In this document: piece after piece, positions 2,750-27,121 of the stretch
Layout of the letters: each line of letters opens with the position of its first letter
Numbering within the stretch: position 1 is the first letter of the stretch
DNA from: a virus
IMG/VR virus record: IMGVR_UViG_3300026078_000018
Direction: 5' to 3' (one strand)
DNA: 64,000 bases
The notes under the pieces: generated by a model
Seen by the model: the letters and a program-made list of their open reading frames with translations, nothing else
Database searches by the model: none
Told to the model about the DNA's origin: nothing
Program-made: the position numbers and the translations under genes

Positions 2750-3661
2750 ATGGCTCGCCCGCTCATGCAGGTCGTCGCCGAACAGCAGCAGGTCATCAAC
2801 TCCTGCCTCCAGTTCATCAACTCTCAGCAGAAGCAGATCGACTACCTGGGCCGCCTGGCCGGGGTCGAGACGCAGATGGCCTCCCTGCGCATCACCGCCG
2901 ACGTCAACAACCCCGCCGACCCCGTCCCGGACCCGCCGTCCCAGGGTGCGCCGGAGACCACCCAGCAGGCGATGACCCCCGCAGCCAAGGACGACCCGCG
3001 GGTGCCTGGCATGACCCCCGGTGCCAACGCCCACGTTCCGGCCGCGGCCACCGACGTGCCGATGACCCCGGGCGCGTCTCTGCCGACCTCTCCGGTCAAC
3101 CAGCTGCTCGACGTTTCTGCGCCGATCTCCGGCACTGAGGGCACCACCGGCAACACCGAGTTCGGGAACCAGGCCGGGCAGGACGCTGTCACCCGCCTGG
3201 AAACGGACGTGCGCGCCCTGGGCATCGGGGAGGAGGGCGATCAGATGAACCCCACCACCGCCTTCCCCTGGGTGATCAGCCCGGATGCGGGCAACGGCGT
3301 GCCCCCGGCCGACGGGGAGATGGCACAGGGCTCCGGCGCGCGCATGGCCGCCTCGCTGCGGCTGGCCAAGGCCCGGATCGCCGCGCGAGTGGCCACCGGC
3401 GACGAGTTCGCGGTCGCTGCCGCCATCGAAGCCGACCCGGCGATGACCGGCGCGCTGATCGCCCACGAACTGGGCACGCTGTCGCGGGTGGCGAAGGCCT
3501 CGACCGGCGCACCGGCCCGTCCCGGAGGTCTGGTGCCGCGCCGAGCCGCAGCCGCACCGCGGCCGGTCGTGCCGTCGCTGACCCAGGCCGTCTCCCCGAT
3601 GCAGGCCCTGGCCGCACTCGGCCCCAGCTCGGACGAGATCGAACTGTCTGACCTGTTCTGA
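2750..3661 (+). CDS. putative capsid scaffolding protein
   Basis: GAAGGAG RBS before ATG 2750. N-terminal coiled coil, Pro/Ala-rich, acidic C-terminus (ELSDLF). Position just before the head genes. Confidence 0.5.
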   Translation: MARPLMQVVAEQQQVINSCLQFINSQQKQIDYLGRLAGVETQMASLRITADVNNPADPVPDPPSQGAPETTQQAMTPAAKDDPRVPGMTPGANAHVPAAATDVPMTPGASLPTSPVNQLLDVSAPISGTEGTTGNTEFGNQAGQDAVTRLETDVRALGIGEEGDQMNPTTAFPWVISPDAGNGVPPADGEMAQGSGARMAASLRLAKARIAARVATGDEFAVAAAIEADPAMTGALIAHELGTLSRVAKASTGAPARPGGLVPRRAAAAPRPVVPSLTQAVSPMQALAALGPSSDEIELSDLF

Positions 3662-3811: not shown

Positions 3812-3919
3812 TTCTCGCATCCGGGTCCTGTCTGTTGTGGCAGCAGCGGGAGAAGGTGTGGCGGGTGATGGCCATCTGCCAGCCACGGAAGGGCAGAAAG
3901 GCGGAAAGGCCGGGTTATC

Positions 3920-4453
3920 ATGATCCGAACCACGCTTGCCAAGGCATACATCAAGCGCACGCTGCGCCCCCTCTACGCCTGGACGCAGTCGACCCCGAAG
4001 TCCTGCTTCCTGGACCCGTCCTGGGACCGCTCCGTGCCGATCTGGCCGGGCATGGTCGCCACCAAGACCTCCGGCGAAAACGTCACCCTCATCGGTGGCG
4101 ACGCGGGCACCACCCTGGCCACCTCCCTGCCGTACGGCCTCATCGGCATGTACGTCGGCGGCGACGGCATCGACGAGCCGCTGGACGCCGGGATCAACAC
4201 TTTCGCTGTGTGGGTCCTGACCCCCGACGCAGAGTTCGAGGTGCTGGCCCCGGCGTTCGACACCGGCGCCACCTGGACCGACCCCGGCGACGGCACCGAG
4301 GTGCTGCTCTACCCGATCGTCAGCCTCGGCGGAAACCAGGGCAAATTGGTGCCTGCCGGAACCACCGGCCGCGGCACCCTCGGCACCACCGCCGCGGCCC
4401 GCCTCATCCGCGTCAACTCTGCCACGAAGATCACGATCGGGGGCGTGCGCTGA
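3920..4453 (+). CDS. head decoration / minor capsid protein (Bxz1-like)
   Basis: The KRTLRPLYA.TQ.TP..FLDP..IWPGMV motif is recalled from the gene preceding the capsid gene in cluster-C-like phages. TGATG overlap with the capsid gene. Confidence 0.7.
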   Translation: MIRTTLAKAYIKRTLRPLYAWTQSTPKSCFLDPSWDRSVPIWPGMVATKTSGENVTLIGGDAGTTLATSLPYGLIGMYVGGDGIDEPLDAGINTFAVWVLTPDAEFEVLAPAFDTGATWTDPGDGTEVLLYPIVSLGGNQGKLVPAGTTGRGTLGTTAAARLIRVNSATKITIGGVR

Positions 4454-5439
4454 TGAGCCAGCTCGTTCACGCCGGACCGGCCCTGATGGGCCGCACCGCC
4501 AAGCACTCCGAGGACTACGTCGCCCAGCTGGTCTCCCGCCGCGAAAACCGCGCGCCGATGACCCGCGAGGCCAAGGTCCAGAAGCTGGCCCTGGTCCTGT
4601 CCGACCCGACCGACGGCATTCGGCGCCTCGGCGTCGGCATGATCGGCCCGATCCAGCTGAAGCTGCGGTATCAGGGCATCGTCCGCAACGTGCTGGTGGA
4701 GGACCCGGTCACTCCGGGCACCCCTGTCGAGTATGACGTCTGGGACGACCTCGGCCAGGCCTACCTGCTCGCCGGGCAGGAGGGCGAAGTCCGCATCACG
4801 CCCTTCGAAGGCAAGCGCGTCCCCGTGAGGTTCTTCAGGATCGCGGCATTTCCGGCGATCCGCAAGGAAGACCTCATGTACCTGCGCATCAATGCGGTGG
4901 AGCAGGCGCAGGATGAGTCCAAGCAGGCGATCCTCAAGCAGGAGGACTCCCGCCTGCTGGTGCTGCTGCAGGCCGCGATCACGGACTACGCCTCGCGGCC
5001 GGACCACACGGTCACCCCCAACCACACCATCACCGAGGCCTCCGGGTACTACACCCCGGGCTCGCTGTACACCGCGGTCAGTATGACCGACATGCACGAG
5101 CTGCAGGCCGCCCGCCTGCTGGCCAACCCGATGGACTTCCGGGACCTGTACCGGTGGGACATCAACCAGACCGGCTGGGCCTTCAAGGACAGGGTCGTCG
5201 CAGGTGAGACCATCACCAGCTTCGGCGAGTTCCAGATCCAGCGGTCGATCATCGTGCCGCAGAAGAGCCTGTACCTGTCGCCGGAGCCGAACTTCCTCGG
5301 CGTCTTCCCTGTCCTGTACAGCCTGGACGTGGAGGAGAACCACCGGGTCGACGCCTTCTGGAAGGGCTGGGTTTTTGACGAAATGGTCAACATGTCCGTT
5401 TTGAACCCTCGCGGGCTCGCGGTGATCGTCAAGCCGTGA
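4453..5439 (+). CDS. major capsid protein (Bxz1/cluster-C-like)
   Basis: MIGPIQLKLRYQGIVRNVLVED...YDVWDDLGQAY...EVRITPFEGKR...KEDL..LR...QEDSRL closely resembles the cluster C mycobacteriophage capsid sequence as recalled. 328 aa, followed by a terminator. Confidence 0.9.
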   Translation: MSQLVHAGPALMGRTAKHSEDYVAQLVSRRENRAPMTREAKVQKLALVLSDPTDGIRRLGVGMIGPIQLKLRYQGIVRNVLVEDPVTPGTPVEYDVWDDLGQAYLLAGQEGEVRITPFEGKRVPVRFFRIAAFPAIRKEDLMYLRINAVEQAQDESKQAILKQEDSRLLVLLQAAITDYASRPDHTVTPNHTITEASGYYTPGSLYTAVSMTDMHELQAARLLANPMDFRDLYRWDINQTGWAFKDRVVAGETITSFGEFQIQRSIIVPQKSLYLSPEPNFLGVFPVLYSLDVEENHRVDAFWKGWVFDEMVNMSVLNPRGLAVIVKP

Positions 5440-5840: not shown

Positions 5841-5926
5841 AGGTATAAAACTCAAATGTTCGAATGGGTGCGTGCTGTACGCCGCGCTGCACCTGTCATG
5901 GCGGTGGCTGTTCGCCCCTAAGGGGC

Positions 5927-8900
5927 ATGACGACACGCTGGCTGTTTCCGCAGAATCCTGAGCTGGCACGGGCCACCGTTCCCGGCGGCACCATGGTCAA
6001 CCTCAACGAGGACCTGCTGACCATCTATATGGATCCCGGCTGCACCCAGCTGGCCGACATCCAAACCGCCGCCGGTGCCCCGATCACCGGCTCCCAGTTC
6101 ACCGTCGGCACCGACAACCTCATCCCGCCGTTCCTCGGGCCGCCCAGCGGCGAGCGGCTGCTGTACGCGAAATCCTCCACCGACTCCGCCGTCTACCCCC
6201 TGGAGGGCGCTGTCGAGCCGCGGATGGACGCGCTGGCTGCGCAGATGCTCACCATCAGCCAGGGCCCGGCCGGGCCGCCCGGAGCGATGCTGCGACTGGG
6301 CAGCGGGGCCCCGGCAGGCAGTATCGGCAACATCGGCGACACCTACATCGATCAGACCGACGCCGTCCTGTATGGGCCGAAAGGCAGCAGCTGGCCGCCG
6401 TCTGGCACCTCTCTCACCGGTCCTGCCGGTCCGGCCGGTCCTACGGGGGCGGCCGGGGCCGCAGGCGCCGCGGGCAGCCAGTGGTGGACCGGTACCGGTG
6501 TGCCGCCGTCCGATACCGGAGTGTCCGGCGACTACTGGTTCCGGCAGGACACCGGCAGCGTCTACCACAAGAGCGTCGCCGGATGGGGCAGTCCCATCGC
6601 CAACATCACCGGCCCGCAGGGCCCCACCGGCCCGCAGGGCCCGGAAGGACCCACCGGGCCGACCGGCGCCCAAGGCGCCACCGGTGCGACCGGGGCCACA
6701 GGTTCGCAGGGTCCCATCGGTCCGACCGGAGCTACCGGCCCGCAGGGTGCCACCGGGGCGGCAGGACCCACCGGCGCCGCTGGGACTCTGGTGCGCTCCG
6801 GCAGCGGTGCCCCGTCCAACATGCTCGGCAACACCGACGACTGGTACATCGACGCCGACGTCTGGGTGCTCTACGGCCCCAAGGGCGCCAGCACCTGGCC
6901 CACCCCCGGCGTATCCCTGATCGGGTCGACCGGCCCTGCCGGGGCCACCGGGGCGACCGGCGCCACTGGTGCCCAGGGAGCCACCGGCCCTGCCGGGGCC
7001 ACCGGAGCGACCGGACCCACAGGAGCGACCGGCCCGCGCGGCAACGCCGTCCTCACCGGCGTCGGCACCCCGCCACTGGGAACCGGGCAAGACGGCGACC
7101 TGTGGTATGACACCGTCGCATACAAGCTTTACGGGCCGCGGGCCACCGGTACCTGGCCCGGTAGCGGCACCCCGCTGGTCGGCCCCCAGGGCCCGGCAGG
7201 AGCGACCGGTGCCACCGGCACCCAAGGCCCGGCCGGTGCGATCGGTGCCACCGGCCCTACCGGAGCAGACGGCGCCACCGGCCCTGCCGGACCGGCCGGT
7301 GCGCCCGGCACCGCGGTGCGCTCCGGCAGCGGTGTGCCGGGCTCGGGCATCGGCAGCAACGGCGATTTCTACATCGACGACAGCGGCTGGGTCACCTACG
7401 GCCCCAAGGCCTCCGGGACATGGCCGTCCGGCGTATCGATGATCGGCCCGACCGGCGCTACCGGACCCGCGGGCCCCACCGGGGCAACCGGCGCGGCAGG
7501 AGCGACCGGCCCCGCCGGGGCGACAGGCGCTGCAGGACCCACCGGCGCTACCGGCCCGGCAGGGCCTACCGGCGCCACCGGCGCCACGGGACCCACCGGC
7601 GCGACCGGCACCGCGGGGACCAACGGCGCCACCATCTGGAACGGCACCGGTGCCCCGTCCAACACCCTCGGCGCCAACAACGATTTCTACATCGACACCG
7701 CCTCCGAGAAAATCTACGGGCCCAAGGCATCGGGACTGTGGCCCGCGTCAGGCACACCGCTGATGGCGCAGGACGGCTGGATCTCGGTGAAAAACCCCGC
7801 TTTCGGGGCCGTCGGCGACGGCGTCCACGACGACACCGCGGCGATCAACGCCGCCATCGCCGTCGCCTACGCCTACTCCGGCCACACCAACGGCGCCGTG
7901 GTCTATTTCCCGCCCGGCGTCTATGGCGTCACCCCAGGGGTGTCCACCGCGGCGATCACACTGAACAACGGCACCACCGGCCTGGGCGGTATCCGCCTGG
8001 TCGGCGCCAACTGGGAAGCCTCCCAAATCCAGAGGCTGGCCCCCGGCGTCATGATCAGCATGTCGGGTCCGGCTTCCGACCCCAGCGGCGACACACACTG
8101 CAAAAACTGCTCCATCGAAAACCTGCACCTGTCCGGCAACGACATGACCGGCCAGGTCATCCAGGCCTACTACGCCGACAACCTGTATTTCCGCGACGTG
8201 CGGATCGTCGGCTGCCCCGACGTGTGCATCTCAGGCGTGGAATTCTGGGACAGCCGCTTCTACAACATGGTGATCGAACTGTCCGGCAGCGCCACCGCCG
8301 ACGCCGCCACACCCAACGTCCTGCTCCAGTGCTCCGCCACAACCAGCGGATTCGGACATAGCACCGACACCACCAACCAGATCCACTTCGTCGGCTGCCG
8401 GTTCGAATCGTTCCACACCGGCGCCATCTGGGTCCGGCAGGGAACCGGCAGCACCAGCGGCTGCAACAGCATCTACGTCATCAACTGCAAAATGGAGACC
8501 GGGGTACTCAACGGCGGCCCGCACCTGCTGGTCGACGCCGTCACCCGCGGCGCCTACGTCGATGGCCTGTACTGCTTCTCCGGCGGTTTCAACAGCGGCT
8601 ACTCCACCGCCCAGGACGTCATCACCTGGTCGGCGCAGGACTCCACCCTCGCCAACGTCTTCATCGCCTCCGGCTCGGACCTGACCGTCGCCAACGGCGT
8701 CACCGTCGACTCTGTCGACAGCACCCAGAACGCCGTCATCCGCAACGTCACCGGCATCTACGACGGCGCGCCCACCGGCGCCCACATCGCCATCGGATTC
8801 ATCAACGACGGCGGATTCATCTTCGACAACTGCAACTCGAACCAGACCCCCGGCGTCCTCAACGACGGCAAATCCATCTGGGTGGGCGGCTCCTCCACAG

Positions 8901-9322
8901 ACAACGCCCTCGCGCTGTATGCCGCCAATGACACCAACAGACGCTGGAAGGCCAACCACAACGGCGACATGTCCTGGGGCTCGGGCACCGCCACCGCAGA
9001 TACCATTCTGGGCCGCAGCGCCGCGGGAATCCTGGCCGTCACCACCGGCAGCTTCGCCGTCACCACCGCGGGCCAGGGATTCCGGGTCAAAGAAGGCACC
9101 AACGCCAAAATGGGCACCGCAGTGGCCAACGGCACCACCGGCGTCACCGTCTCCACCACCGCGGTCACCGCCAACAGCCGCATCTACCTGACCTGCCAAA
9201 CCCCCGGCGGTACCGTGGGGACGCTGTATGTGGCCAGCCGCAGCGCGGGGGCTTCGTTCGTGGTGAAGAGCACCGCCGCCGACACCTCCACTTTCGCGTG
9301 GCTGATTGTCGAACCGGCCTGA
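5927..9322 (+). CDS. collagen-like fibre / tailspike with a pectate-lyase-like beta-helix
   Basis: Gly-X-Y tracts alternate with six G.G.P...G..GD.Y.D modules. [19 protein letters not shown]...VYFPPGVY is a typical beta-helix start. The C-terminal cap resembles actinophage fibres. Confidence 0.85.
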
Positions 9323-17649: not shown

Positions 17650-17749
17650 CACACTGGATTCTCACCCCGTCCGCAGGACTCACTGGGAGGCCGTAGGGCC
17701 GGGCCCGGCGGATACCTGTCACCCGATACTGGAAAGGAAGGCACGTCAC

Positions 17750-18310
17750 ATGCCACGCGACAAGAAGACGTCCACGCCTGCCCGCAAGACCGCGGCCCTG
17801 AAGGCTGTGCCGAAGCACGCGCCCAAGCGCAACGGCGCCAAGAGCGGGCAGCGCCAGTCGCTCACCGAGCGCCCCGACGCCCCGCTCGGCTACCACATCC
17901 TGGCCTCGGCCCGTGCCTACAGCCACGCACTGCAGCTGGCGCTGGCTGCGAAGCCCGCCACCGCCAAGCTGACGGTGCCGAGGCTGCAGGCCCTACAGAT
18001 CATCGCCAGCAACGACGGCATCCACGGCGCCGACCTCGCCTGCGCGCTGGATGTGACGCCGCAGACCGTCACCACCATCCTCAACTCTCTGCTCGACAAC
18101 GGCTGGATCGACCGCCGCGCCGGGAAGGGCCGCGCGCTCAAGGCCTACCTGACCAAGGAAGGCCGTGCCCAGCTGAACAAGGGCATCGCGGTGTTGTTAA
18201 AGGTCGATGAGACGTTGGCGGGCACCTACTCCCACGACGGCGCCGAGGCCGACGTCCTGACGGATTTGCTGCGTATGGGGCGGCAGAGCTTCGGGCTGCA
18301 GGCTGCGTGA
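17750..18310 (+). CDS. MarR-family winged-HTH regulator
   Basis: ADLACALDVTPQTVTTILNSLLDNGWIDR...LTKEGR. Confidence 0.8.
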   Translation: MPRDKKTSTPARKTAALKAVPKHAPKRNGAKSGQRQSLTERPDAPLGYHILASARAYSHALQLALAAKPATAKLTVPRLQALQIIASNDGIHGADLACALDVTPQTVTTILNSLLDNGWIDRRAGKGRALKAYLTKEGRAQLNKGIAVLLKVDETLAGTYSHDGAEADVLTDLLRMGRQSFGLQAA

Positions 18311-18520: not shown

Positions 18521-19102
18521 ATGACTATCGCATCCGACGACGAAGCGCCGCTGATGCGCCGCTTCAGCAAGGCCTGGATCGGGCACTACTGGATGCAGCT
18601 GCTGATCGCGTACGGCATCGCCCTCGCGCCGCTGGCGTTCCTGCACGACAGCTGGTCCCTGAGGGCCACCAACTGCGTGGTCGTCATCCCGGCGATCATG
18701 CTGTTCATGCACGGCATGGCCCACGAGGTGAAGCTGTGCGAGCCGTGTCAGGCGAAGATGCCGCTGGACCCGGCCGCGCACGCCGTCAAGCGCGCCAGGA
18801 TGCTGCGCGCGATCCACTGGCTCTCCACTCCGGTGGGCGGGCGGCGCCGGTCGGTGTCCCGCGGCCTGCTGCTGTTCATTGCGCTGCTCGCGGTCGGCAT
18901 CCTTCTGCCGTCCGGTCCCTGGGGAAGTCTCGGCGATTCGGCCATGATCGACGGGTTCTTCTACAGCTGGATCCTCATGTCGCGCGGACACCAGCGCCTG
19001 CAGCCGTGGTGCCCGCAGTGCCGCTGGGGCGACGGCGGCGAGAAGGAGCCCAGCCCCGAACCGGCGCCGTCGCCCGGGCTGGTGCCCTCCGGCAGCGTCT
19101 GA
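18521..19102 (+). CDS. membrane protein with Cys/His motifs
   Basis: Four hydrophobic segments. H..LCEPC and H..LQPWCPQC. Confidence 0.65.
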   Translation: MTIASDDEAPLMRRFSKAWIGHYWMQLLIAYGIALAPLAFLHDSWSLRATNCVVVIPAIMLFMHGMAHEVKLCEPCQAKMPLDPAAHAVKRARMLRAIHWLSTPVGGRRRSVSRGLLLFIALLAVGILLPSGPWGSLGDSAMIDGFFYSWILMSRGHQRLQPWCPQCRWGDGGEKEPSPEPAPSPGLVPSGSV

Positions 19103-19525
19103 GGTGCCCACCACAGCGGTACGCCCCTCCCCGGCGACAATCCGGGGAGGGGCGTCCCCATTTTCGCAACACCTTGAGTCCATGCCATCATCGGGCCCTG
19201 TGTCTCTGGATCACCAGCGCGCCGCCGCCGCCGACGCTCTCATCGCCCGGGAGACAGACCGTCTGGCAGACGCCCTCACGCCGCCCCTGACAGCCTTCCA
19301 CGACACGCGCGTCCACCAAGCACTCCTCGACTTCCGCAGCGCCTGGGAGGCCTGCCACGGCCGCGCAGACCGCTACGGCGAAGCCACCGCCGAAGTCCTG
19401 CAACTCTTCCGCATCACCATGACCGAACAGGCCATGCCCTGCGGATGGCGCCGCTCTCGCAACGTATGAAGTACCCATCAAGCGAATCCGCCACGAACCC
19501 CGCCGCGCGCCGCTAGCCTAGGACC

Positions 19526-19950
19526 GCTGGTGCAGGCACGAGTCGCCAGCGCCCCCGTCTGACAGCAGCCTGAGGCTGGACGCCGAGCCCCTCGGCAGCT
19601 GCGAAAGCAGGCGGATGCCGGTCCCTGCCTCTTCCACAGGCGGGCAGGGACCGGCCACAAGACCCCGGCCAAGCTCGCGCTCCCGCCGGGGGAGGTGCCG
19701 CCCCGAATTGTTAAGCTCTTTACGGGACGCCGCCGGGTGGAGGGTAACCGCCCCAGGCTCCGCCTCTGGATCGAGCAGAGGCGGGGCCTTCTGCTGTCAG
19801 CAGCCTGTATCCCTATATCCTCGGACCCGGAGTCTGCGCCCGGTCTGCCGAGACCTATTGAGGAAGGGCATAGCCTCCACGCCTCGCCCCTGCTGACTCC
19901 TGGGACGAAGCCAGCGCCCCGGCTCCCACTACGGATGGGGGCTGGGGCCG
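19526..19950 (+). ncRNA. candidate large structured ncRNA
   Basis: TAGCCT -10 at 19514. Closing stem 19559-19568/19791-19800. 13-bp stem 19617-19629/19643-19655. CTGC-GAAA-GCAG. Terminal hairpin 19916-19948. Confidence 0.55.
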
Positions 19951-20003
19951 ACTGCTGTCCGGCCATCCCCGCCGCTGAGGAAGCGGCGAGGAGGACGCCG
20001 CCG

Positions 20004-21332
20004 ATGCCCACACCCTGGAAGCTGCCGCATGCCCACCCCGCCGTCCCCGGCGGAGGCCGCGTGCTCACCCCCGCCGACCGCGAGTTCCACCAGTTCTCGC
20101 ACCCCGGCGTGTGGGGCGCCCTGGCCGACGAGAGCATGCACAACCCGTTCCGCGACTTCGACTTCGAGGACCGCGGCCGGGACAGCGCAGACGACGAAGA
20201 CCGGATCTACCACGGCTGGGACCACGCCGCCGACGCTGACCCCGGGTACGTGAAGGATTTTCACGAACGCTACGCCCACCACGTCGGCAAGGCGCACCCC
20301 GCCATGGCGATCCCGAGCAGCGTGGTCCCCCAGATCATGAAAGAGGGGCGGATCAAGAGCCAGTTCGAGACCGGCGCCTCCGAGGGCGAATATGACCCCG
20401 AAGGCCGCGCCGAGGTCGAACACCACCAGTTCGGCTACCCCGAGGACCACCCCGAGCACGCACGCCCCATCTACGGCTACCTGTCCGGCAACCCGTTCAC
20501 CGACTCCTCCGGCGCCGGATACGGCCACACCACCTTCGTCCTGCACAAGCCCCACGTGTGGCACCGCACCACGTTCTCCGGCGGCGACTCCTGGGGCAGC
20601 ATGGGGCAGATCTCCCCGGCATCGGTGAACGACTACACCGCCGACCCCCACAGCTTCCGCCACGCCGTCCCGGTCAACCACCTCGGCTTCGACAACGAGG
20701 AAGCCCACCGGCTCGCCGGGCACTCCCTGGCCCGCCGCATGGAAGAGCACCCAGCCGCAGCGCGCGCCGACACGTTCTGGCGCAACACCGACCGCGACCG
20801 CGACTACTTCCCCTACCCCGAGGCGCAGTACCACGGCGGCGTCGGCCTGCACGCCGTCCGCTACGCCATCGTCCGCTCTGCCGACACCGGCGGCGACCCC
20901 CACTCCATGTCCTCCAGCTCCCGCGAGGCCACCCGCGCACTCACCGCCGCCGGGATCCCCTGGGTCCACACCGTCGGCTACCGCAAGCCCACCACCCGCG
21001 ACCACGCGTTCATGAACGACGAGAAGCACCGCCCGCTGCCGCCGGAGATGCCCTACTCGATGCACCGCGGCGCCAACCTGCTCACCAATCTCGCCGGGCC
21101 CATCTTTGAGCCCCGCGTGCGCTACCAGAGGCCCGGCGGAGGCGGCTGGCTGCTCACCCACACCGACAAGCACCACGGCCAGACGATGGCGCGCGCCGCC
21201 GACCCCGAGTGGGGGTTCTCCGGCCAGGCGCCGCTGCACTCGTTCCTGGCCCGCGGCTACTGGGAGCACATGCCCGAGCCGCTGGATTCCCGCGACGTGC
21301 TGGCTGTGTGCCGCAGGGGGGCCAGCCGGTGA
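20004..21332 (+). CDS. DUF3626-like (putative ART-fold) protein with a C-terminal ARGYW domain, copy 1
   Basis: KSQFETG.S.G, RPIYGYL, YG...FVL, RTTFSGGDS, Y.EAQYHGGV. Ends ...HSFLARGYWE. Confidence 0.7.
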   Translation: MPTPWKLPHAHPAVPGGGRVLTPADREFHQFSHPGVWGALADESMHNPFRDFDFEDRGRDSADDEDRIYHGWDHAADADPGYVKDFHERYAHHVGKAHPAMAIPSSVVPQIMKEGRIKSQFETGASEGEYDPEGRAEVEHHQFGYPEDHPEHARPIYGYLSGNPFTDSSGAGYGHTTFVLHKPHVWHRTTFSGGDSWGSMGQISPASVNDYTADPHSFRHAVPVNHLGFDNEEAHRLAGHSLARRMEEHPAAARADTFWRNTDRDRDYFPYPEAQYHGGVGLHAVRYAIVRSADTGGDPHSMSSSSREATRALTAAGIPWVHTVGYRKPTTRDHAFMNDEKHRPLPPEMPYSMHRGANLLTNLAGPIFEPRVRYQRPGGGGWLLTHTDKHHGQTMARAADPEWGFSGQAPLHSFLARGYWEHMPEPLDSRDVLAVCRRGASR

Positions 21333-22528
21333 GCCGCTTCGACCCGGGCCCGGCGCCATCCCACGGCGTCCCTGACGTTCCCCACGGCCAGGTCATCACC
21401 CGCGCGCACCCGGCGTGGCACCGGCGCACCGACGACGAAGTGTGGGGCACTCTCGCAGAGACCCGCCACAACCCGTTCCACGACGCACTGAAGCCGCCGG
21501 TCGGTGACTGGGGCGACAGCACCAACGCGTATTTCTGGGACGGTATCCGCGAGCGCCACCCCGAGAAGTACCAGGCCGCCCAGCATGCGCTGCACCGCGC
21601 GGTGTCCGGCATGCACATCGCCGTGGCCGTGCCGTCGCTGGCCCTGCACGACATCGCCGACGAAGGCCGTCTGCGCTCGGCGTTCCATATCGGCGATGAC
21701 GAGCACTGGTCGGACAACCCCGACTACAAGGACATCCGCCGCCGAGGGGAGTTCGCACACTTCCGCTACCCGATGAAAGGCCACCCCGATCACGCACGGC
21801 CCATCTACGGGCACCTCACCTCCGACCCGTTCACCGATGCTTCCACCGAGCCCTACGGCCACCACACCCTGGTGCTGTCCCGCGCCGCCGTGGGCCACCG
21901 CACCACCTTCACCGGTGCCGACTCCCTAGACCAGGAGCACAAAGTCCGCGCCAGCCCGCTCACCGAGCCCGGCCTGCATTCGCTCAACCCGGCCACGCTC
22001 GACCCCCGAAAGCCGGACCTGGGGGTGTACAAGGCCGTCACCGACCGCAGCAAGTACAGCCCCTACATCGAGGCTCAGATCCACGGCGGTGTCGAGATCG
22101 GCCGCGATGTCCATCACGTGATTCTGCGCACTCCCGAGCATGAAAGCGAGCACGGCTGGGCCCACTCGACCGGCGAGCGCCTGGGGGTGCCGTGGATCCA
22201 CACCCGAGGTTTCAGCCGCCCGGACAGGGCCACCGCGTTCAGCGGCGTGCCCGCACACCGCCTCGGCGCGATCCTGGCCGCACATGCTGCCGTCGCCACC
22301 GGCGCGTTCGTCTCGGACTACCGCCCAGAGATCATCTGGCATCAGGGCCACGAGCGGTTCATCGTCGAGCTGGCCGCGCATGGCATGGGCCAGATCGCAG
22401 ACCTGGAGTGGGGTGCGCTGTATCCGCCGATGCCGATCGCCTCGATTCTGGCGCGCGGCTACTGGCAGCGCCTGCCGCATCCTGTCGACGCCGAGGACGT
22501 GCTGGCGAAGGTACGACCCGTCACGTGA
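21329..22528 (+). CDS. DUF3626-like protein with a C-terminal ARGYW domain, copy 2
   Basis: RPIYGHL, YG...LVL, RTTFTGADS, YIEAQIHGGV. Ends ...SILARGYWQ. GTGA overlap with copy 1. Confidence 0.7.
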   Translation: MSRFDPGPAPSHGVPDVPHGQVITRAHPAWHRRTDDEVWGTLAETRHNPFHDALKPPVGDWGDSTNAYFWDGIRERHPEKYQAAQHALHRAVSGMHIAVAVPSLALHDIADEGRLRSAFHIGDDEHWSDNPDYKDIRRRGEFAHFRYPMKGHPDHARPIYGHLTSDPFTDASTEPYGHHTLVLSRAAVGHRTTFTGADSLDQEHKVRASPLTEPGLHSLNPATLDPRKPDLGVYKAVTDRSKYSPYIEAQIHGGVEIGRDVHHVILRTPEHESEHGWAHSTGERLGVPWIHTRGFSRPDRATAFSGVPAHRLGAILAAHAAVATGAFVSDYRPEIIWHQGHERFIVELAAHGMGQIADLEWGALYPPMPIASILARGYWQRLPHPVDAEDVLAKVRPVT

Positions 22529-22567
22529 CGGCCGGTTGTGCCATCAGCGTACGGAATGAGGTGCGCA

Positions 22568-22864
22568 ATGGCTGAGGAGAAGCTGGGTGATGGCGAGGTC
22601 AAGAGGCGTATCGAGGCCATCGAGGCGGCGCTGAGGCAGCGTGTCACCAAGGAAGAGTGGGAGCGGGAGAACGGCCATCTGCGCAAGGAGATCGACGAAG
22701 GCGACGAGGACTGCAAGGAGCGCACCGCCGGGGTGCAGAAGCAGGTAGATGAGCTCAAGACGGAAAAGAAGATCGCTTGGGAGCGGGTGGTGCAGTGGGC
22801 GGCGGTCGGCGTGGCCCTGCTCGGCGCCCTCTACACCGCGTACGCGGCGACTAAAGGGAAGTGA
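22568..22864 (+). CDS. coiled-coil protein with a C-terminal TM helix (holin-like / lysis accessory)
   Basis: Charged coiled coil followed by [13 protein letters not shown]. Confidence 0.5.
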
Positions 22865-23598
22865 AGGATGAGATGAGTGAGCCCATGTCCGAACCTGACG
22901 GGCGTCTGGGGCGCCTGCGCACTCCGCACGCACGCCGACGGGCGGCTGCTGTGGGGGCGGTGGTGGCCTCGGGGGTGTTCCTGGCATCGATGATCATCAT
23001 CCTCGACCGCTTCGGCAGCGACTCCCACAAGATCGATGCCTTGCAGGCGCAGGCAGCCCAGCAGGCCCAGAACGCCAGCATCCAGGCCAACAACGTCAAC
23101 ATCCTTGCAAGCAAGTATGACGACGAGCGCAAACTGATCCAGCAGCACAACATCGGCCCCGTACCGCCACCGGCCGCCTCCCTCATCGCCGGAGCACCGG
23201 GGGCACCCGGTCCTGCCGGAGCCAACGGTCTGCCCGGCGCGCAAGGTCCTGCAGGACCGGCCGGTGCCCCCGGTGCCACAGGCCCTGCCGGGCCGCCAGG
23301 AGTATCAGGAAGCCCCGGCGCCCCGGGCAGCCCTGGAGGGCCCGGCCAGCCCGGTGCCAGCGGCGTGCCAGGACCGAGCGGGGCATCCGGCGCACCTGGT
23401 TCTCCCGGTGCCCCAGGCAGTCCTGGAGCGCCCGGTGTACCGGGCCCCACAGGCCCGTCTGGTCCATCAGGAGAACCAGGCCCGGCCCCGCCCGGCTGGA
23501 CCTGGACCGAGCGCGGGATCGGGGGCCCGGCCACCCACAGCTGCAACCAGGTCACCGGCCCCACAGCCACCCCGTCGCCGCAGTACTCATGCAACTAA
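22861..23598 (+). CDS. membrane-anchored collagen-like protein
   Basis: N-terminal TM, coiled coil, Gly-X-Y tract, C-terminal Cys pair. Start could be 22873. Confidence 0.7.
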
Positions 23599-23608
23599 GC
23601 GGATCATC

Positions 23609-23638
23609 ATGACGGGTGATGTAGGGGGCTGCTACGGT
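23609..23638 (+). promoter_or_regulatory. promoter for the mini-arrays
   Basis: ATGACG-N18-TACGGT with a TGn extension. Predicted start near 23645, the first base of repeat 1. Confidence 0.55.
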
Positions 23639-23644
23639 TGAGCC

Positions 23645-23733
23645 GTCGGCCCCGCCTCGGCGGGGATGGCCCGCTGTACTGTCTGGCGGAAAATGGCCCA
23701 GAGCCGTTGGCCCCGCTTTGCGGGGATCGCAGC
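23645..23733 (+). CRISPR. type I-E-like mini-array A (repeat, 32-nt spacer, degenerate repeat)
   Basis: R1 23645-23673 GTCGGCCCCGCCTCGGCGGGGATGGCCCG (29 nt). Spacer 23674-23705 (32 nt). R2 from 23706, GTTGGCCCCGCTTTGCGGGGATCGCAGC. 61-bp period. Confidence 0.8.
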
Positions 23734-23734
23734 A

Positions 23735-23826
23735 CATCTCTCCACACAGGTGGAGGTGGACCCACGCCGGTCTGCGTGAGCGCATCCCTCGCTCGCGATG
23801 CTCTCCACACCCGTGGAGGTGTCCGG
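23735..23826 (+). CRISPR. type I-E-like mini-array B (second repeat family, 34-nt spacer)
   Basis: R3 23735-23763 CATCTCTCCACACAGGTGGAGGTGGACCC. Spacer 23764-23797. R4 23798-23826 ATGCTCTCCACACCCGTGGAGGTGTCCGG. Confidence 0.72.
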
Positions 23827-23827
23827 T

Positions 23828-23846
23828 TCAGGCCTACGGGGCCTGA
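23828..23846 (+). terminator. hairpin closing the mini-array transcript
   Basis: TCAGGCC-TACGG-GGCCTGA. Confidence 0.4.
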
Positions 23847-23969
23847 TAGGCTCACATCCGCCTCGTCCTGTACCTGGGGGTTCAGCGGCGAAGCGGCTCA
23901 TCAGGTTGCACGATGAACACCGCAGGCCCTGGTTAGACCTGCGGTGTTCTGCGTTGATAGGCTGCCGAC

Positions 23970-24100
23970 GCCGTAGTCGTCTAGTGGCCCAGGACGCCGC
24001 GTCGCAGGGGATCGAGGCCCCAGCCGGGGGCGCGCAGCCCGGCGAATCCCAAATGGCCCCCGGCCCGGAAACCCCGGTTCGAATCCGGGCACGGCAAGCA
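23970..24100 (+). ncRNA. tRNA-like RNA (Glu/Gln-type D arm) with a ~65-nt insert replacing the anticodon loop
   Basis: GCCGTAG-TC-GTCTAGTGGCCCAGGAC D arm. CCCGG-TTCGAAT-CCGGG T arm. CACGGC acceptor 3' strand. TAGACC-N18-TAGGCT promoter upstream. Confidence 0.6.
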
Positions 24101-24149
24101 TGTCTCTCCGGGCATATCAGTATGATGCCGGAGCCTGTGACATGTCCGG

Positions 24150-24578
24150 CTATGAGCGGCGGTTGTCCCGGATCTGGTAGACCCGGACCCGGCTAATGCC
24201 GAGTTCAGCGGCGATGACCTGCACCGGCACCTTGGCGTCGAAACAGCCCCGTACCGCATCGGCCTTGTCCTGCCAGGCTTGGTCGGCAACGGCGGCAGCC
24301 TGCACTGCCTCGCGCTCGGCCGTGCGCAGTTGTTCCAGGGCCGCCTTCTGCCTGTTGGCTCCGTGCTGGCGCGGGGCCTGGGTGTTGAGCCGGTCGGCGA
24401 GCATCTGAAACAGCTCCGGCAACGGCTCGCCGTCGGCGTCGACCATGTCGGTACTGACCAGCGCCGCCAGGTCCGAACCCGCCACCGGGGCGAAATCATC
24501 ACCGCGGTCGATACGCGCCCTCCGGCGCGTCCACACCGCCCGCACGTCGTCGGCGGTGACCACCGTCTTCTCGGCCAC
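24150..24578 (-). CDS. protein with a C-terminal HTH
   Basis: VQVIAAELGISRVRVYQI. GGAGG RBS. TTGACA-N16-TAAAGT upstream (24642-24615). Confidence 0.75.
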   Translation of the reverse strand: MAEKTVVTADDVRAVWTRRRARIDRGDDFAPVAGSDLAALVSTDMVDADGEPLPELFQMLADRLNTQAPRQHGANRQKAALEQLRTAEREAVQAAAVADQAWQDKADAVRGCFDAKVPVQVIAAELGISRVRVYQIRDNRRS

Positions 24579-24745
24579 TTCTTCCTCCGCAGGTTATAGG
24601 ATGTGTATAGGGGCACTTTACAAGAGTGTCCATGTCTGTCAAGCCCGGCTATACAAAACCCCATCGGGGTGCTCCTGCGCCGGGCAAGCACGTTCCCTCT
24701 GCATGGGACAATGGAGGCTCTCGCAACGACACCTCGGGGGTCCTG

Positions 24746-25015
24746 ATGACTACAGCCGCACTGGCCGACGCCACCACATTCGACGTACCCCACAACCCCC
24801 GCATCCGCTACCGGCAGGGCGACAGCCGCTTCATCATCGAGCTGATGCGGCAGGCCGAGGACGGACTGCCCATGGGCCAGGTCGCAGACCTCGAATGGGG
24901 CCATCTGTTCGCCCCCATGCCGCTCGGCTCCATCCTGGCCCGCGGCTACTGGCAGGAGATGCCCGAGCCGATCGCCGCCATGGGAGTGCTGGCGGAGGTC
25001 AGGCCGGTCGGGTGA
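24746..25015 (+). CDS. stand-alone ARGYW-domain protein
   Basis: RFIIEL...MGQVADLEWGHLFAPMPLGSILARGYWQ...VLAEVRPV matches the C-termini of both DUF3626-like proteins. Confidence 0.75.
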   Translation: MTTAALADATTFDVPHNPRIRYRQGDSRFIIELMRQAEDGLPMGQVADLEWGHLFAPMPLGSILARGYWQEMPEPIAAMGVLAEVRPVG

Positions 25016-25067
25016 AGCCCCTGAAGGACTCGATAGATTTTCTGTCGAAAGTGAGATCATCACATTC

Positions 25068-25373
25068 ATGATCCTCACTACTCAAAGCGACTTCACTCTT
25101 CAGGACCGCGGCGAAGTGTGCCGCACGAGTGAGCAGGACGGCCCCGCATGTGGTGCACCGGTTACCCGGCACCTGTGCGTTGCCCAGATCCAGGACGACA
25201 TCACCTTGACCGCCGTGGCGTTCTACACCTGCGACCGGGATGCGAGGTGGGGTAGTGGGCTCGTCTTCTCGCACCCGCTGACCGAGCAGTGCGGCGCCCC
25301 CGGCACTCAAGCCTGGTACGAAACCACCACCGGGGACAGCGGCTGCCGCTTCCCGGAAGCCACAGCAGAATGA
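25068..25373 (+). CDS. Cys-rich hypothetical protein
   Basis: ORF track; coupled to the downstream gene. Confidence 0.5.
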   Translation: MILTTQSDFTLQDRGEVCRTSEQDGPACGAPVTRHLCVAQIQDDITLTAVAFYTCDRDARWGSGLVFSHPLTEQCGAPGTQAWYETTTGDSGCRFPEATAE

Positions 25374-25759
25374 GCACCCCCGTCCAAGACCCCGTCGAGG
25401 CTGAGGTACGCCAGGTCGAGACTGCCATGCGGGACCTGGCCAACACCTACTGGAACCGCTGCCTGGCCGCCGACTCCAACGAGGACCGGGCGCGCGCCGA
25501 GGCGGTCGGAGAACTGGCTGACGACCTCCTGTCCGTCACCGGATTCACGAAGTGAGCGAGCGGGCGGCCAGCGTGGCCTCGTGGGTCGAGCGCGTACAGG
25601 CCGTGCTGAAGGCAGCCGAGGCCGACGGCGTGAAATGGGCGTACGAGGCCGACTACTGCACCGCGGATGACTGTGCGGGATGCTGCAGGATCGACCACCC
25701 GCTGGCCGCCAGCCGCGACGACGGCTTCGTGTACGTCCACATCCACTGAGGAGATCAAG

Positions 25760-26062
25760 ATGACCCTCCCTCTCCCCACCGTCGGCCGCACCGTCCACTA
25801 CGTCAGCCACGGCACGCCGCCGCGCGAGGACGGCACACAGGCCTTTCCCTCCGCCTGCCGGGCCGCCATCATCACCGAGGTGGCGACCGACTCAGGCATT
25901 CTCGATGGGCTTGTCGGCCTGTGCGTACTCAACCCCACCGGCTTCTTCTTCCACTCGATCGCCGACGGCGGCTGCACCCACAGCCAGTCTGTCCACGAGG
26001 GTGGTACCTGGCACTGGCCTGAGGGTACTGTGCCCGGCCACGTCGCCCACATGGGGTTGTAG
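25760..26062 (+). CDS. conserved small phage protein (PTVGRTVHY type)
   Basis: PTVGRTVHY...RAAIITEV...GLCVLNPTG...GTWHWP. Confidence 0.7.
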   Translation: MTLPLPTVGRTVHYVSHGTPPREDGTQAFPSACRAAIITEVATDSGILDGLVGLCVLNPTGFFFHSIADGGCTHSQSVHEGGTWHWPEGTVPGHVAHMGL

Positions 26063-26077: not shown

Positions 26078-26262
26078 TCAGCCCACGATCGGCTCACACG
26101 CCACCAGTTCCTGCCCGCGCTCGTACCACCATTCGTTGACGGCGCGCTCAACTGCCTGGCGCAGATCGTCAACGACGGCGTCGTCATCCCCATGTCGTCG
26201 GGCAGATGCTCGATGTCGTGGACGGTCAAGCTGACCACGAAGCTTCGCATGGTCTTGCTCAC
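26078..26262 (-). pseudogene. small ORF split by a 1-nt indel in a G run
   Basis: VSKTMRSF...PDDMG continues in another frame as DDDAVVDDLRQ...PIVG*. Confidence 0.4.
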
Positions 26263-26693
26263 GACAGGCTCCAGTCCGGGTTGTAGTCGGGGTGGGTGGC
26301 ATCGGGCGTGGCCAGATGCCGGACGGTCTCGCACAGCCCGCGCGCTTCGATCTCGCCACAGTGGGTGTCGGCGTGGCAGGTACGGCAGCCGGTCTGCGGG
26401 CCGTCCTTGTGCGGCCGGTCGGCGGCCACTTGGGGGTGCTCGGCCAGGATTGCCCGCTTGGCCGCGATGTCGGCTAAGACAGCGGCAGGGTCATGGAGGG
26501 CGATATGAGCGGCTTGGTGCTCGTTGTGGCCGCCTTCGTCGTAGATGACGAACTTCCCAAAATCGTCAGCTTCGATCTGGCGTTCCTGGTTGGTGACGTG
26601 CCATTGGCCGTTCGTGCCGTTACAGGCCAGCCGTGCGGTCTGCTCACGCTCGGTCCACCGCGCCAGCAGGAACTCGTCGATGTCCATCGTCAC
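26259..26693 (-). CDS. DUF6221-like protein, copy 1
   Basis: DEFLLAR...AAHIALHDPAAVLADIAAKRAIL...HPDYNPDW. Confidence 0.75.
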   Translation of the reverse strand: MTMDIDEFLLARWTEREQTARLACNGTNGQWHVTNQERQIEADDFGKFVIYDEGGHNEHQAAHIALHDPAAVLADIAAKRAILAEHPQVAADRPHKDGPQTGCRTCHADTHCGEIEARGLCETVRHLATPDATHPDYNPDWSLS

Positions 26694-27121
26694 ACTGCCC
26701 AGGCCGGGTTGAAGTCAGGGTGGGCGGCATGGGGCGCGGCGAATCGGCGCCTCACCACGTCGGCCAGCTCTTCCAGCCCCCACTGATTCGGGCTGGTGCT
26801 GAGCCCTTGGCGTTCGGTCTCTTCGATCGACCGCAGCTCGGCCAGGATCGCCCGCTTGGCAACGATGTCGAGCAGGACCGCGGCCGGGTCGTGGAGGGCG
26901 ATGTGGGCGGCCTTCGCATCGCCGTGAACGTAGGCCACACCGTTGTCTTCTTGATCAACGATGAGGGTTGCCGCAGGGACGGCGCCTGGTTCGCTGGGCA
27001 CGAACTTCTCGACGGTCCAATTCCGGGAGTTTGTCGGATTGCGTGGTACCGGGTTGATGGCCTCGTTCGCGATCTGTTCTTTCTCAGCCCACCGCGCTAG
27101 CAGAAACTCGTCGATGTCCAT
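26690..27121 (-). CDS. DUF6221-like protein, copy 2
   Basis: Same motifs; tandem paralog of copy 1. Confidence 0.75.
   Translation of the reverse strand: MDIDEFLLARWAEKEQIANEAINPVPRNPTNSRNWTVEKFVPSEPGAVPAATLIVDQEDNGVAYVHGDAKAAHIALHDPAAVLLDIVAKRAILAELRSIEETERQGLSTSPNQWGLEELADVVRRRFAAPHAAHPDFNPAWAV

Follow-up and report, generated by a model that had tools for sequence, protein, structure and literature searches.

The question raised by this locus of a large uncultured actinomycete phage is why two adjacent enzyme genes both end in a small domain that is encoded again, as a gene of its own, further downstream. The locus was analysed in a stretch of 64,000 nucleotides (the window) from a 139.8-kb record that is 88% complete. 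A sequence-only reading had taken the two products for toxins or effectors of the ADP-ribosyltransferase (ART) fold fused to their inhibitor, with extra inhibitor expressed separately, and had added that a head protease might cut off the inhibitor and arm the enzyme for injection. This interpretation was partly supported, and its three central inferences (the ART fold, the domain as partner and inhibitor, and the free inhibitor) gained computational support. The fused genes (ORF1 and ORF2), the free-standing copy (ORF3) and the neighbouring regulator genes are listed in Table 1.

Table 1. Features of the locus, in coordinates of the window unless residues are given
Feature	Position	Strand	Details
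MarR gene	17723-18310		Regulator in the ORF1/ORF2 neighbourhood
ORF1	20004..21332	+	442 aa; core, linker and ARGYW domain
ORF1 parts	core residues ~3-326, linker ~327-370, ARGYW domain ~371-437		HMM coordinates
ORF1 ARGYW domain	21114..21314	+	residues ~371-437; motif 416-420; HMM E 9e-10, larger profile 1.9e-18
ORF2	21329..22528	+	399 aa; GTG start; ART core, disordered linker, ARGYW domain
ORF2 ART core	21329..22213	+	residues 1-295
ORF2 linker	22214..22312	+	residues ~296-328; pLDDT <50 for 295-328 (AF2 model)
ORF2 ARGYW domain	22313..22525	+	residues ~329-399; motif 375-379; HMM E 8e-27; pLDDT 81-89 (full-length model)
HTH gene	24150-24578		Regulator in the ORF1/ORF2 neighbourhood
ORF3	24746..25015	+	89 aa, free-standing ARGYW protein; domain ~16-88, motif 65-69; HMM E 1e-28

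The ATG start of ORF1 is preceded, 9 nt upstream, by a Shine-Dalgarno-like stretch (GAGGAGG), and it agrees with the MPTPWKLPHAHP of the homologs. The TGA stop of ORF1 and the start codon of ORF2 overlap as GTGA, and the same full-length form of ORF2 is found in a public protein collection (P0001). For ORF3, which lies 2.2 kb downstream of the fused genes, the gene call in the public collection starts at 24632 (127 aa, P0019); the later start was favoured because the homologs P0020 and P0022 measure 88-90 aa. The cores of ORF1 and ORF2 agree at 114 of 284 aligned positions (40% identity) and match the Pfam family DUF3626 (PF12294), which confirmed that the two genes are adjacent paralogs with a DUF3626-like core.

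DUF3626 is the domain of SopF (PMC6682159). SopF is an ADP-ribosyltransferase whose triad is I-Y-E and whose structure has been solved (7DN8 and 7DN9; PMC10333799). ORF1 scored 35.9 bits against PF12294, for which the cut-off is 27, and ORF2 scored 26.1 bits in hmmscan, just under the cut-off, and 28.2 bits in a six-frame scan of the record once same-frame neighbouring pieces were added. A profile of 19 homologs matched the 7dn8 sequence with an E value of 1.3e-4 over 208 profile positions, and its RPIY, YG and Y-x-E-A-x-I-H-G motifs aligned to the same motifs in SopF. The AF2 model of full-length ORF2 (mean pLDDT 77.9, pTM 0.69) was compared with the PDB using Foldseek, and the best matches were 7dn8_A (E 2.5e-6) and 7dn9_A (3.4e-6), followed by DarT chains; the TM-scores against SopF were 0.40/0.52, at an identity of about 14%. 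In SopF, Y224 and Y240 bind nicotinamide and E325 binds the N-ribose, and mutation of any of these residues largely blocks activity (PMC11937434). Based on the profile alignment to 7dn8/7dn9 and on the mutagenesis primers and text of PMC11937434, these residues correspond to Y160, Y176 and E248 in ORF2, and are predicted to correspond to Y157, Y173 and E273 in ORF1. All three are invariant or nearly so among the 19 homologs. By computed family membership, fold and conserved predicted NAD-site residues, ORF1 and ORF2 are SopF-family ARTs, and the earlier suggestion of an ART fold is supported on each of these counts.

The C-terminal domain, here called ARGYW, is present in both paralogs as had been described, and ORF3 is the same domain standing alone. 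Across the three copies, 23 alignment columns are invariant, among them A-D-x-E-W-G, P..S.LARGYW, P.P and VLA..R, and a profile built from independent ARGYW proteins found exactly three matches in the whole record (E 8e-28, 3e-27 and 2e-18), far beyond chance. The length of about 80 aa first given for the domain was too long, as the conserved core spans about 65-70 aa. ORF3 shares 62% identity with the ORF2 domain and 39% with that of ORF1, it clusters with ORF2-type fused domains in the tree, and in the alignment its N-terminus (AALADATTF) resembles the end of the ORF2 linker (AAVATGAF). The AF2 model of ORF3 (pLDDT 89, pTM 0.78) shows a beta-rich domain, for which there was no Pfam family, no fold match in the PDB and no structural relative among known immunity proteins in fold searches. 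The proposal that the inhibitor is also supplied separately was borne out in the sense that ORF3 is a real copy of the domain and that six fused genes of other lineages retain a ribosome-binding site and start codon inside the gene: an in-frame ATG with a Shine-Dalgarno-like purine run lies exactly at the start of the ARGYW domain. Judged from these start sites, the free supply of the domain appears to be conserved.

The association of the two domains was examined in a non-redundant set of 113 DUF3626 ORFs taken from viral and metagenome contigs; 107 of these ORFs had room downstream. An ARGYW ORF was located directly downstream on the same strand of 46 of the 107 genes, usually overlapping the stop codon; a fused domain was present in 8 and an adjacent convergent ARGYW gene in 2, and 46 had no detectable ARGYW partner. 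Searched from the other side, the domain gave 87 matches among 30,195 six-frame ORFs, most of them at a DUF3626 junction. Most of the 10 carriers that were tested were MuF, minor-capsid-2, portal-MuF or polyvalent proteins with DUF3626 as their C-terminal cargo, the carriers with MuF or other head domains including L013, L033, L067 and L081. In MuF polymorphic toxins, a small immunity gene lies directly downstream of the toxin (PMC5576092), and the ARGYW gene occupies this position of an immunity gene in the gene neighbourhood. Of 11 loci in bacterial genomes that were seeded with ARGYW alone, only 1 had an adjoining DUF3626 gene.

This last result indicates that the domain also works away from this enzyme, where an orphan immunity or sensing function and a role other than inhibition fit equally well. 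In bacteria, the domain is C-terminally fused to ADP-ribosylglycohydrolases (PF03747; L089, L096 and P0086), in fusions that occur in Bacillota and beside which no toxin gene was found, and also to PD-(D/E)XK or REase-ARP nucleases. The domain might be a targeting or reader module for the substrate or for an ADP-ribosylated product, either protein or nucleic acid, bringing writers (DUF3626), erasers (the glycohydrolases) and nucleases to one modified target. All three fused enzyme classes could share a single ADP-ribosylated substrate, 10 of the 11 ARGYW-seeded bacterial loci have no adjacent DUF3626, and the DNA-modifying DarT enzymes are the closest structural neighbours of the core after SopF. 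We nevertheless consider a reader quite improbable, as a reader of 65-90 aa would have no obvious role as an overlapping downstream gene in the canonical immunity position, and fold searches found no likeness to macro, WWE or other ADP-ribose readers, a result that weighs little. The predicted structure of the complex also speaks against it.

To obtain this structure, the ORF2 core (residues 1-296) was modelled with free ORF3, alongside three controls. The ipSAE values were 0.82, 0.80 and 0.82, and the best control gave 0.00; in the calibration, 58 of 80 solved complexes and 2 of 110 mismatched pairs attained this ipSAE mark, counts which hold only roughly here because custom alignments were used for the complex. 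At least 75% of the contacts agreed between runs, and the partner had a pLDDT of 75-76. On the core, the confident predicted contacts include Y160, G161, residues 174-178 (with Y176) and D198, and do not include the catalytic glutamate E248; on ORF3 the interface is formed by residues 58-71 (S62, I63, A65, R66 and Y68). The invariant ARGYW motif is therefore predicted to sit on the enzyme's own two nicotinamide-binding tyrosines, a placement that counts against the reader. Together with the immunity-gene position and the glycohydrolase fusions, the predicted complex lends computational support to the domain as partner and inhibitor of the enzyme.

Gene linkage and a confidently predicted complex point to binding and leave the sign of the effect free, and the domain could conceivably be required, as activator, chaperone or structural subunit, by an enzyme that is inactive or unstable alone. 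There are precedents, since SopF requires a bound host ARF GTPase for activity (PMC10333799) and an ART toxin, TreX, is chaperoned by TrxA (PMC11606950). We judge a positive role of this kind very unlikely here: the predicted contacts fall on the nicotinamide-binding tyrosines and not on a distal surface, fusion to glycohydrolases that undo the modification fits an antagonist better, and the partner is absent from nearly half of the enzymes of the family.

The reading that we regard as reasonably probable is that of a self-inhibited ADP-ribosyltransferase, with its inhibitor present both in cis and in trans. ORF1 and ORF2, judged by their sequences to be catalytically competent ARTs of a phage of ~140 kb, would each carry the ~65-aa ARGYW domain on a flexible linker of 35-45 residues, on which it would fold back over the catalytic cleft. 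The invariant segment S-I-L-A-R-G-Y-W would cover the two tyrosines that hold nicotinamide, so that NAD+ or the substrate could not bind, and the domain would plug the active site, perhaps in the manner of a pseudo-substrate by way of its invariant arginine. ORF3 would be the same plug in free form, neutralising in trans any enzyme whose tether is open or removed, a role that would match the small gene downstream of DUF3626 on MuF, portal and polyvalent head proteins elsewhere. We infer inhibition from gene context and one structure prediction, and we also infer the enzyme's targets and its mode of switch-on. How an enzyme with a permanently tethered inhibitor becomes active is a puzzle that counts against the model. 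The switch that we favour would be loss of the ARGYW domain by cleavage or degradation of the exposed linker, which might be the work of the phage head protease, should the proteins be packaged, and otherwise of host proteases; the next candidate would be displacement of the domain by a trigger protein.

The junction strings singled out by the sequence-only reading, HRGA and HRLGA, are present as described, at residues 354-357 of ORF1 and 310-314 of ORF2. Both lie inside the linkers, and that of ORF2 is predicted to be disordered. At the same alignment column, homologs have H-T-A (P0018) and R-T-A (P0013), so the strings are only loosely conserved. In the head-gene ORF at positions 2-2614, MHVTAAE and MRHTAGL occur in the stretches between modules. 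Neither ORF1 nor ORF2 shows a recognisable domain for targeting to the head, MuF included. Arming by a protease is therefore a plausible hypothesis and not a finding, and cleavage of the linker by the phage head protease, were the two proteins packaged, is a possible but doubtful route of activation. The model for this idea is Alt of phage T4, an ART of the R-S-E clade with no known inhibitor domain, which travels in the phage head, enters the host with the DNA and undergoes processing by the prohead protease. Alt acts immediately after infection (PMC8120803).

Switching by a trigger leads to another explanation, in which the proteins are not injected cargo armed by a protease and instead form a fused toxin-antitoxin switch resembling CapRel. 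The ARGYW domain would inhibit until it is pulled off by a trigger protein, which a competing phage, the defence of the host or a stress signal could provide. ORF3 would set the threshold, and the switch would lead to superinfection exclusion, abortive infection or a timed host takeover. The architecture is that of the phage-encoded CapRelSJ46 (PMC9712102), in which the enzyme comes first in the chain and an autoinhibitory domain follows at the C-terminus. ORF1 and ORF2 lack MuF, portal or other head domains, the 139.8-kb record has no match to MuF (PF04233), and the genes lie ~14 kb from the capsid gene, amid MarR and HTH regulators and accessory genes. The bacterial ARGYW-nuclease fusions, moreover, point to a possible sensing role of the domain. 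On the other side, the 88%-complete record yielded neither an integrase nor a serine recombinase, which leaves a prophage-borne defence role unsupported, DUF3626 is mostly carried on virion head proteins in the relatives tested, which points to injection, and no candidate trigger was identified. We consider such a switch unlikely, and a self-inhibited enzyme released by loss of its domain remains our preferred reading.

Among known systems, the core is closest to the Salmonella T3SS1 effector SopF, which is of the same Pfam family, gave the best structural match and has the same NAD-site residues and motifs. SopF is a bacterial effector directed against the eukaryotic V-ATPase, activated by host ARF GTPases and devoid of an ARGYW domain, whereas ORF1 and ORF2 are phage-encoded, presumably have bacterial targets and bring their own tethered partner domain. 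The relatives with DUF3626 cargo and a downstream ARGYW gene resemble the MuF polymorphic toxins that temperate phages encode (Jamet et al. 2017, PMC5576092) and phage polyvalent proteins (Iyer et al. 2017, PMC5512222); neither DUF3626 nor its ARGYW partner was found named in the main text of these two papers. Unlike MuF toxins, the enzymes in the window have no head domain, their presumed immunity domain is covalently fused, and no integrase was found.

[quoted passage not shown] The ARGYW family shows both of these solutions, as small binder and as hydrolase fusion, but the system is an analogue and not a homologue. Bsi is alpha-helical and the ARGYW domain is beta-rich; we read E818-x-E820 of Bxa as the pattern of ExE-type ARTs. 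Occlusion of the active site and enzymatic reversal are also the means of immunity in Tre1-Tri1, where Tre1 is a Serratia T6SS ART, and in DarT-DarG (PMC8120803). Tri1 pairs a DraG-like hydrolase with a segment blocking the toxin active site, a two-module logic shared by the ARH-ARGYW fusions, although Tre1 is in the R-S-E clade and the Tri1 plug is an N-terminal extension unrelated to the folded 65-aa domain found here. CapRelSJ46 (PMC9712102) is likewise a single phage-encoded polypeptide, in which an N-terminal toxin domain that uses nucleotides is followed by an autoinhibitory domain at the C-terminus, but its enzyme and inhibitory fold are unrelated, and it is a host-protective abortive-infection system triggered by a capsid protein. 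The architecture of ORF1 and ORF2 likewise places enzyme and putative autoinhibitory domain in one chain, with autoinhibition suggested by the predicted complex. Set beside these systems, the locus would add a fused version to the known toxin-and-antidote theme of phages. Its new elements are the covalent joining of enzyme and domain, the site at which the domain is predicted to bind, and the fusions in bacteria.

The sequence-only reading had described two adjacent paralogs, ORF1 and ORF2, with a DUF3626-like core and a shared C-terminal domain, of which a third copy, ORF3, stands free. This arrangement was confirmed by alignments, Pfam and a record-wide profile search. A Pfam DUF3626 match was obtained in both ORF1 and ORF2, and their cores are 40% identical. 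Judging from the GTGA overlap of their reading frames, the two genes are translationally coupled, and the tandem pair is presumably conserved in the closest homologs (P0002-P0018). The C-terminal domain, named ARGYW after its motif, has 23 invariant columns across the three window copies, including the motif itself. ORF3 consists of this domain alone and shares 62% identity with the ORF2 copy and 39% with the ORF1 copy. A profile built from independent family members detected exactly three copies in the record (E 8e-28 to 2e-18). The junction strings given in that reading, HRGA in ORF1 and HRLGA in ORF2, are both present.

Coordinates of the features discussed (window positions, or positions in loci, L, from genome and contig searches; P, proteins from protein-collection searches)
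Feature	Location	Strand	Description
ORF1	window 20004-21332		442 aa; DUF3626 core, linker, ARGYW domain
ORF2	window 21329-22528		399 aa; DUF3626 core, linker, ARGYW domain
ORF3	window 24746-25015		89 aa; ARGYW domain alone
Internal ATG in fused DUF3626-ARGYW genes	L003:2147, L004:7695, L097:2326, L100:1764, L101:2020, L118:340
ARGYW at N-terminus of longer protein	L009:8690-11095, L060/L071:8639-9346		~223 or 802 aa; directly downstream of DUF3626
ADP-ribosylglycohydrolase-ARGYW	L089:1297-2427, L096:4925-6120, P0086		PF03747; ARGYW at C-terminus
ARGYW-nuclease fusions	L087/L088:5935-6747, L093:5049-6593, L094:5821-7122, L095:5379-6680, P0099-P0102		ARGYW at N-terminus
Tandem ARGYW protein	L090:5593-6165 (P0040)		182-191 aa; two ARGYW domains
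Head-region ORF	window 2-2614		870 aa, open at window edge; two repeated modules matching 'ParB C-terminal domain' phrog
Scaffold-like ORF	window 2636-3661		341 aa
Long ORF of major head protein	window 3835-5439		phrog_2522, E 4e-98
Tail-spike candidate	window 5864-9322		1152 aa; collagen repeats, pectate-lyase-like beta-helix, K1-lyase_C intramolecular chaperone domain
First small gene after ORF2	within window 22538-23598		108 aa; coiled coil, C-terminal membrane helix
Second small gene after ORF2	within window 22538-23598		245 aa; N-terminal membrane helix, Gly-X-Y collagen repeats
Overlapping paralogous gene pair	window 26259-26693 and 26690-27121	minus	143-144 aa each

DUF3626 (PF12294) corresponds to the domain found in SopF, a Salmonella effector (PMC6682159). 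SopF is an ADP-ribosyltransferase; it has an I-Y-E triad, and its structure has been solved (7DN8, 7DN9; PMC10333799). In SopF, E325 contacts the N-ribose of NAD+, and Y224 and Y240 contact the nicotinamide (PMC11937434). Relatives similar in length to ORF1 and ORF2 numbered only 18 among 5.8 billion proteins, all metagenomic and unnamed, and they split into ORF1-type and ORF2-type subfamilies. A phmmer search of the PDB sequences with ORF1 alone gave no match; the profile of the 19-sequence family matched the SopF sequence (E 1.3e-4) with the R-P-I-Y, Y-G and Y-x-E-A-x-I-H-G motifs aligned, and Y224, Y240 and E325 of SopF were placed in these motifs by means of the mutagenesis primers of PMC11937434. 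The best PDB matches of the ORF2 AlphaFold model (pLDDT 77.9, pTM 0.69) were SopF (E 2.5e-6), followed by DNA-modifying DarT toxins. The earlier guess of an ADP-ribosyltransferase fold for the core is supported by the profile match, by these structural matches and by the conserved equivalents of the SopF NAD site (Y160, Y176 and E248 in ORF2; Y157, Y173 and E273 in ORF1). As these residues are kept in both paralogs, both look catalytically competent from their sequences. PADLOC returned no match for ORF1, ORF2 or ORF3.

In the full-length ORF2 model, the core (residues 1-295) is followed by a disordered linker (295-328, pLDDT <50) and a well-predicted C-terminal domain. ORF3 modelled alone, with 53 homologs, gave a confident fold of four beta strands and two short helices (pLDDT 89, pTM 0.78). 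Pfam scans of 18 ARGYW proteins yielded no family for the domain, its model had no convincing fold match in the PDB (best Foldseek E 0.32; best Z 3.7 in a wide VIA-align search), and the ESM Atlas returned unrelated, weakly supported matches only. A likeness to the SLA1 SH3 domain, seen as a weak profile match (E 0.18), was not upheld by the Foldseek and VIA-align searches. An exhaustive search of 1.84 billion cluster representatives gave 71 profile matches, a few of which were repeat-protein false positives. The real matches were of two kinds: stand-alone proteins of 65-110 aa, with about 55 small ARGYW proteins, and proteins of 400-470 aa in which the domain follows a DUF3626 core.

The linkage of the two domains was quantified in 160 loci from viral and metagenome contigs, gathered with the DUF3626 profile and scanned in all six frames with purpose-built HMMs. 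These held 113 non-redundant DUF3626 ORFs, 107 of them with downstream DNA. Co-occurrence of the domains had been named as a check in the sequence-only reading: ARGYW was fused to 8 of these 107 ORFs, was encoded immediately downstream on the same strand of 46, typically overlapping the stop codon, and by an adjacent convergent ORF in 2. It lay elsewhere in the locus for another 5, and the six-frame scan found none in the locus for the remaining 46. In most of the 10 carriers tested, DUF3626 was cargo at the C-terminus of a MuF protein, a minor capsid protein 2, a portal-MuF fusion or a polyvalent protein; the polyvalent proteins had additional ADP-ribosyltransferase or 2H-phosphoesterase domains. 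In some phage contigs (L009, L060/L071) the downstream ARGYW domain is the N-terminus of a longer protein, which had no further recognised domain.

The binding mode was predicted with two chains, the ORF2 core (residues 1-296) and free ORF3, and with three controls. The modelled interaction, proposed earlier as a check, was predicted with ipSAE values of 0.82, 0.80 and 0.82, against 0.00 for the best control. In calibration the mark was reached by 58 of 80 solved complexes and 2 of 110 mismatched pairs, counts that are only approximate here because the complex prediction used custom alignments. The runs shared at least 75% of contacts, with a partner pLDDT of 75-76. The confident predicted interface comprised core residues 160-161, 174-178 and 198-201 and ORF3 residues 58-71, and the lowest-error pairs joined core Y160 and Y176 to S62, I63, A65 and R66 of ORF3. 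The invariant ARGYW motif is therefore predicted to lie on the tyrosines equivalent to those that hold nicotinamide in SopF. This supports, and does not prove, a role of the modelled domain as an active-site plug. The family, fold, catalytic residues, gene linkage and predicted NAD-site interface are computational results; inhibition, toxicity, the target and the way in which the ORF1 and ORF2 enzymes are activated are inferences. The system is probably a SopF-type ADP-ribosyltransferase that is kept inactive by its own inhibitor domain, attached in cis and provided in trans as well. The domain might instead serve as a reader or targeting module, which with the motif predicted on the NAD-site tyrosines we hold to be improbable, or as an activator or chaperone, which appears very improbable.

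Evidence on the free and fused forms came from other fused genes. In six of them, from about four other lineages, the ARGYW domain begins precisely with an in-frame ATG, which follows a Shine-Dalgarno-like purine run (AGGAGG, GGAAGGAG, AAGGGGG, GAGAGG, GGAGGG). Such an ATG could be left over from the two-gene form, or translation may initiate there and give the free domain as well. An internal start in ORF1 or ORF2 was dropped as a candidate, as neither has a Shine-Dalgarno sequence and start codon at the domain boundary. The phage that carries them has its separate free copy in ORF3. In a tree from a short alignment, ORF3 and its relatives of 76-90 aa fall together with the fused domains of ORF2 type (support 93/78), and the N-terminus of ORF3 parallels the end of the ORF2 linker. 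This is consistent with ORF3 having arisen when part of an ORF2-like gene was duplicated; the reverse, in which a free ARGYW gene became fused to the enzyme, is also possible.

Within the inhibitor model, ORF1 and ORF2 might be armed by a head protease that cuts the linker, a variant we regard as doubtful. The only leads to it are the disordered, basic linkers of both proteins, the residues that homologs show in the alignment column of the ORF1 H-R-G-A (H-T-A in P0018, R-T-A in P0013), and the strings MHVTAAE and MRHTAGL in the 870-aa head-region ORF. Against it, ORF1 and ORF2 are without a head-targeting domain and are located among regulators and accessory genes. A conditional variant of the same model, in which a trigger would release the domain as in a CapRel-like switch, is judged unlikely.

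The window corresponds to bases 21131-85130, read on the minus strand, of a 139.8-kb IMG/VR record with an estimated completeness of 88%; G+C content is about 67%. Window 19000-26000 had no megablast match among 50,697 phage records, and no near deposited phage relative was found. The 139.8-kb record yielded no MuF, tyrosine integrase, serine recombinase or ADP-ribosylglycohydrolase. The window does encode a major head protein; the N-terminal third of its long ORF is Arg-rich and apparently out of frame, and the true start is probably near MSQLVHAGPALMGR, at about position 4440. Upstream of it lie the scaffold-like ORF and, before that, the 870-aa ORF, the product of which looks like a multi-module head-region protein, with MHVTAAE and MRHTAGL between its repeated modules and a Cys-rich, acidic tail. 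The 1152-aa product is probably a tail spike or depolymerase. Directly 3' of ORF2 are two tightly coupled small genes. The paralogs of the overlapping pair both start with MDIDEFLLARW and share an HPD(Y/F)NP(D/A)W tail. A scan for sigma-70-like consensus promoters gave one site, for a divergent HTH gene, and none for ORF3.

With ARGYW alone as the seed, 185,579 species genomes were searched, together with a separate search for longer ARGYW-bearing proteins. A DUF3626 gene adjoined ARGYW in only 1 of the 11 ARGYW-seeded loci (L092). In Bacillota MAGs the domain was found on ADP-ribosylglycohydrolases, with no DUF3626 gene nearby. One of these genes (L096) directly follows an HTH-WYL-WCX regulator; a frameshift in it is possible, as its ARGYW part is read in a second frame. 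In Chloroflexota and Bacillaceae the domain is joined to PD-(D/E)XK or REase-ARP nucleases, and in L094 and P0099 the nuclease portion has a match to PDC-S26, a candidate defence family in PADLOC (E 2e-13). The tandem ARGYW protein is encoded on a Nitrospirales chromosome. The hydrolase fusions may be host neutralisers of phage SopF-type enzymes, and the nuclease fusions may be sensor-effector defence proteins. A broader reading, which we advance as speculative and rather unlikely, is that ARGYW is a general NAD-pocket plug for SopF-family ADP-ribosyltransferases, used by the phage and host sides of the conflict. Phages would then use it in cis and in trans as a safety catch on injected enzymes, and in this phage cutting of the linker as the head matures would arm the pro-enzyme. 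Bacteria would have taken up the domain in two combinations, with the hydrolase to neutralise incoming phage enzymes, and with the PD-(D/E)XK nuclease to detect them and fire an abortive response. If so, the phage's own antidote domain would be what lets the host recognise the injected effector.

A widespread small domain annotated by no database has been named and delimited, with a confident fold model and a binding mode that can be tested, and roughly half of the SopF-type ADP-ribosyltransferases examined in phages have it as a companion. The covalently self-inhibited form suggested by the model bears on how effectors stay harmless until delivery. Should the plug act on the NAD pocket, which is conserved, the entire SopF family may have in it a natural protein inhibitor, and the bacterial hydrolase and nuclease fusions are a possible new class of host counter-measures to injected phage enzymes. 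Phage ADP-ribosyltransferase effectors with immunity genes are already known. New are the definition of ARGYW as a previously unannotated domain family, the internal start signals within fused genes, the tandem paralogs in which enzyme, linker and partner are covalently fused and to which a third, free copy of the partner is added, the predicted interface mapped onto the nicotinamide-binding tyrosines, and the bacterial hydrolase and nuclease fusions.

The prophage toxin Bxa and its immunity protein Bsi (PMC11699363) were rejected as a characterised member of this system and are an analogue only, given the alpha-helical fold of Bsi and the E-x-E pair of Bxa. The layout of a DUF3626 carrier with a downstream ARGYW gene is that of MuF polymorphic toxins, for which immunity is presumed to be encoded by a small ORF downstream (PMC5576092), and the carrier layout also fits head-packaged polyvalent proteins (PMC5512222; PMC9503650). 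The fusion of an ADP-ribosylglycohydrolase with a domain whose predicted binding partner is the transferase follows the same logic as Tri1 (PMC8120803) and as the two immunity proteins of Bxa (PMC11699363).
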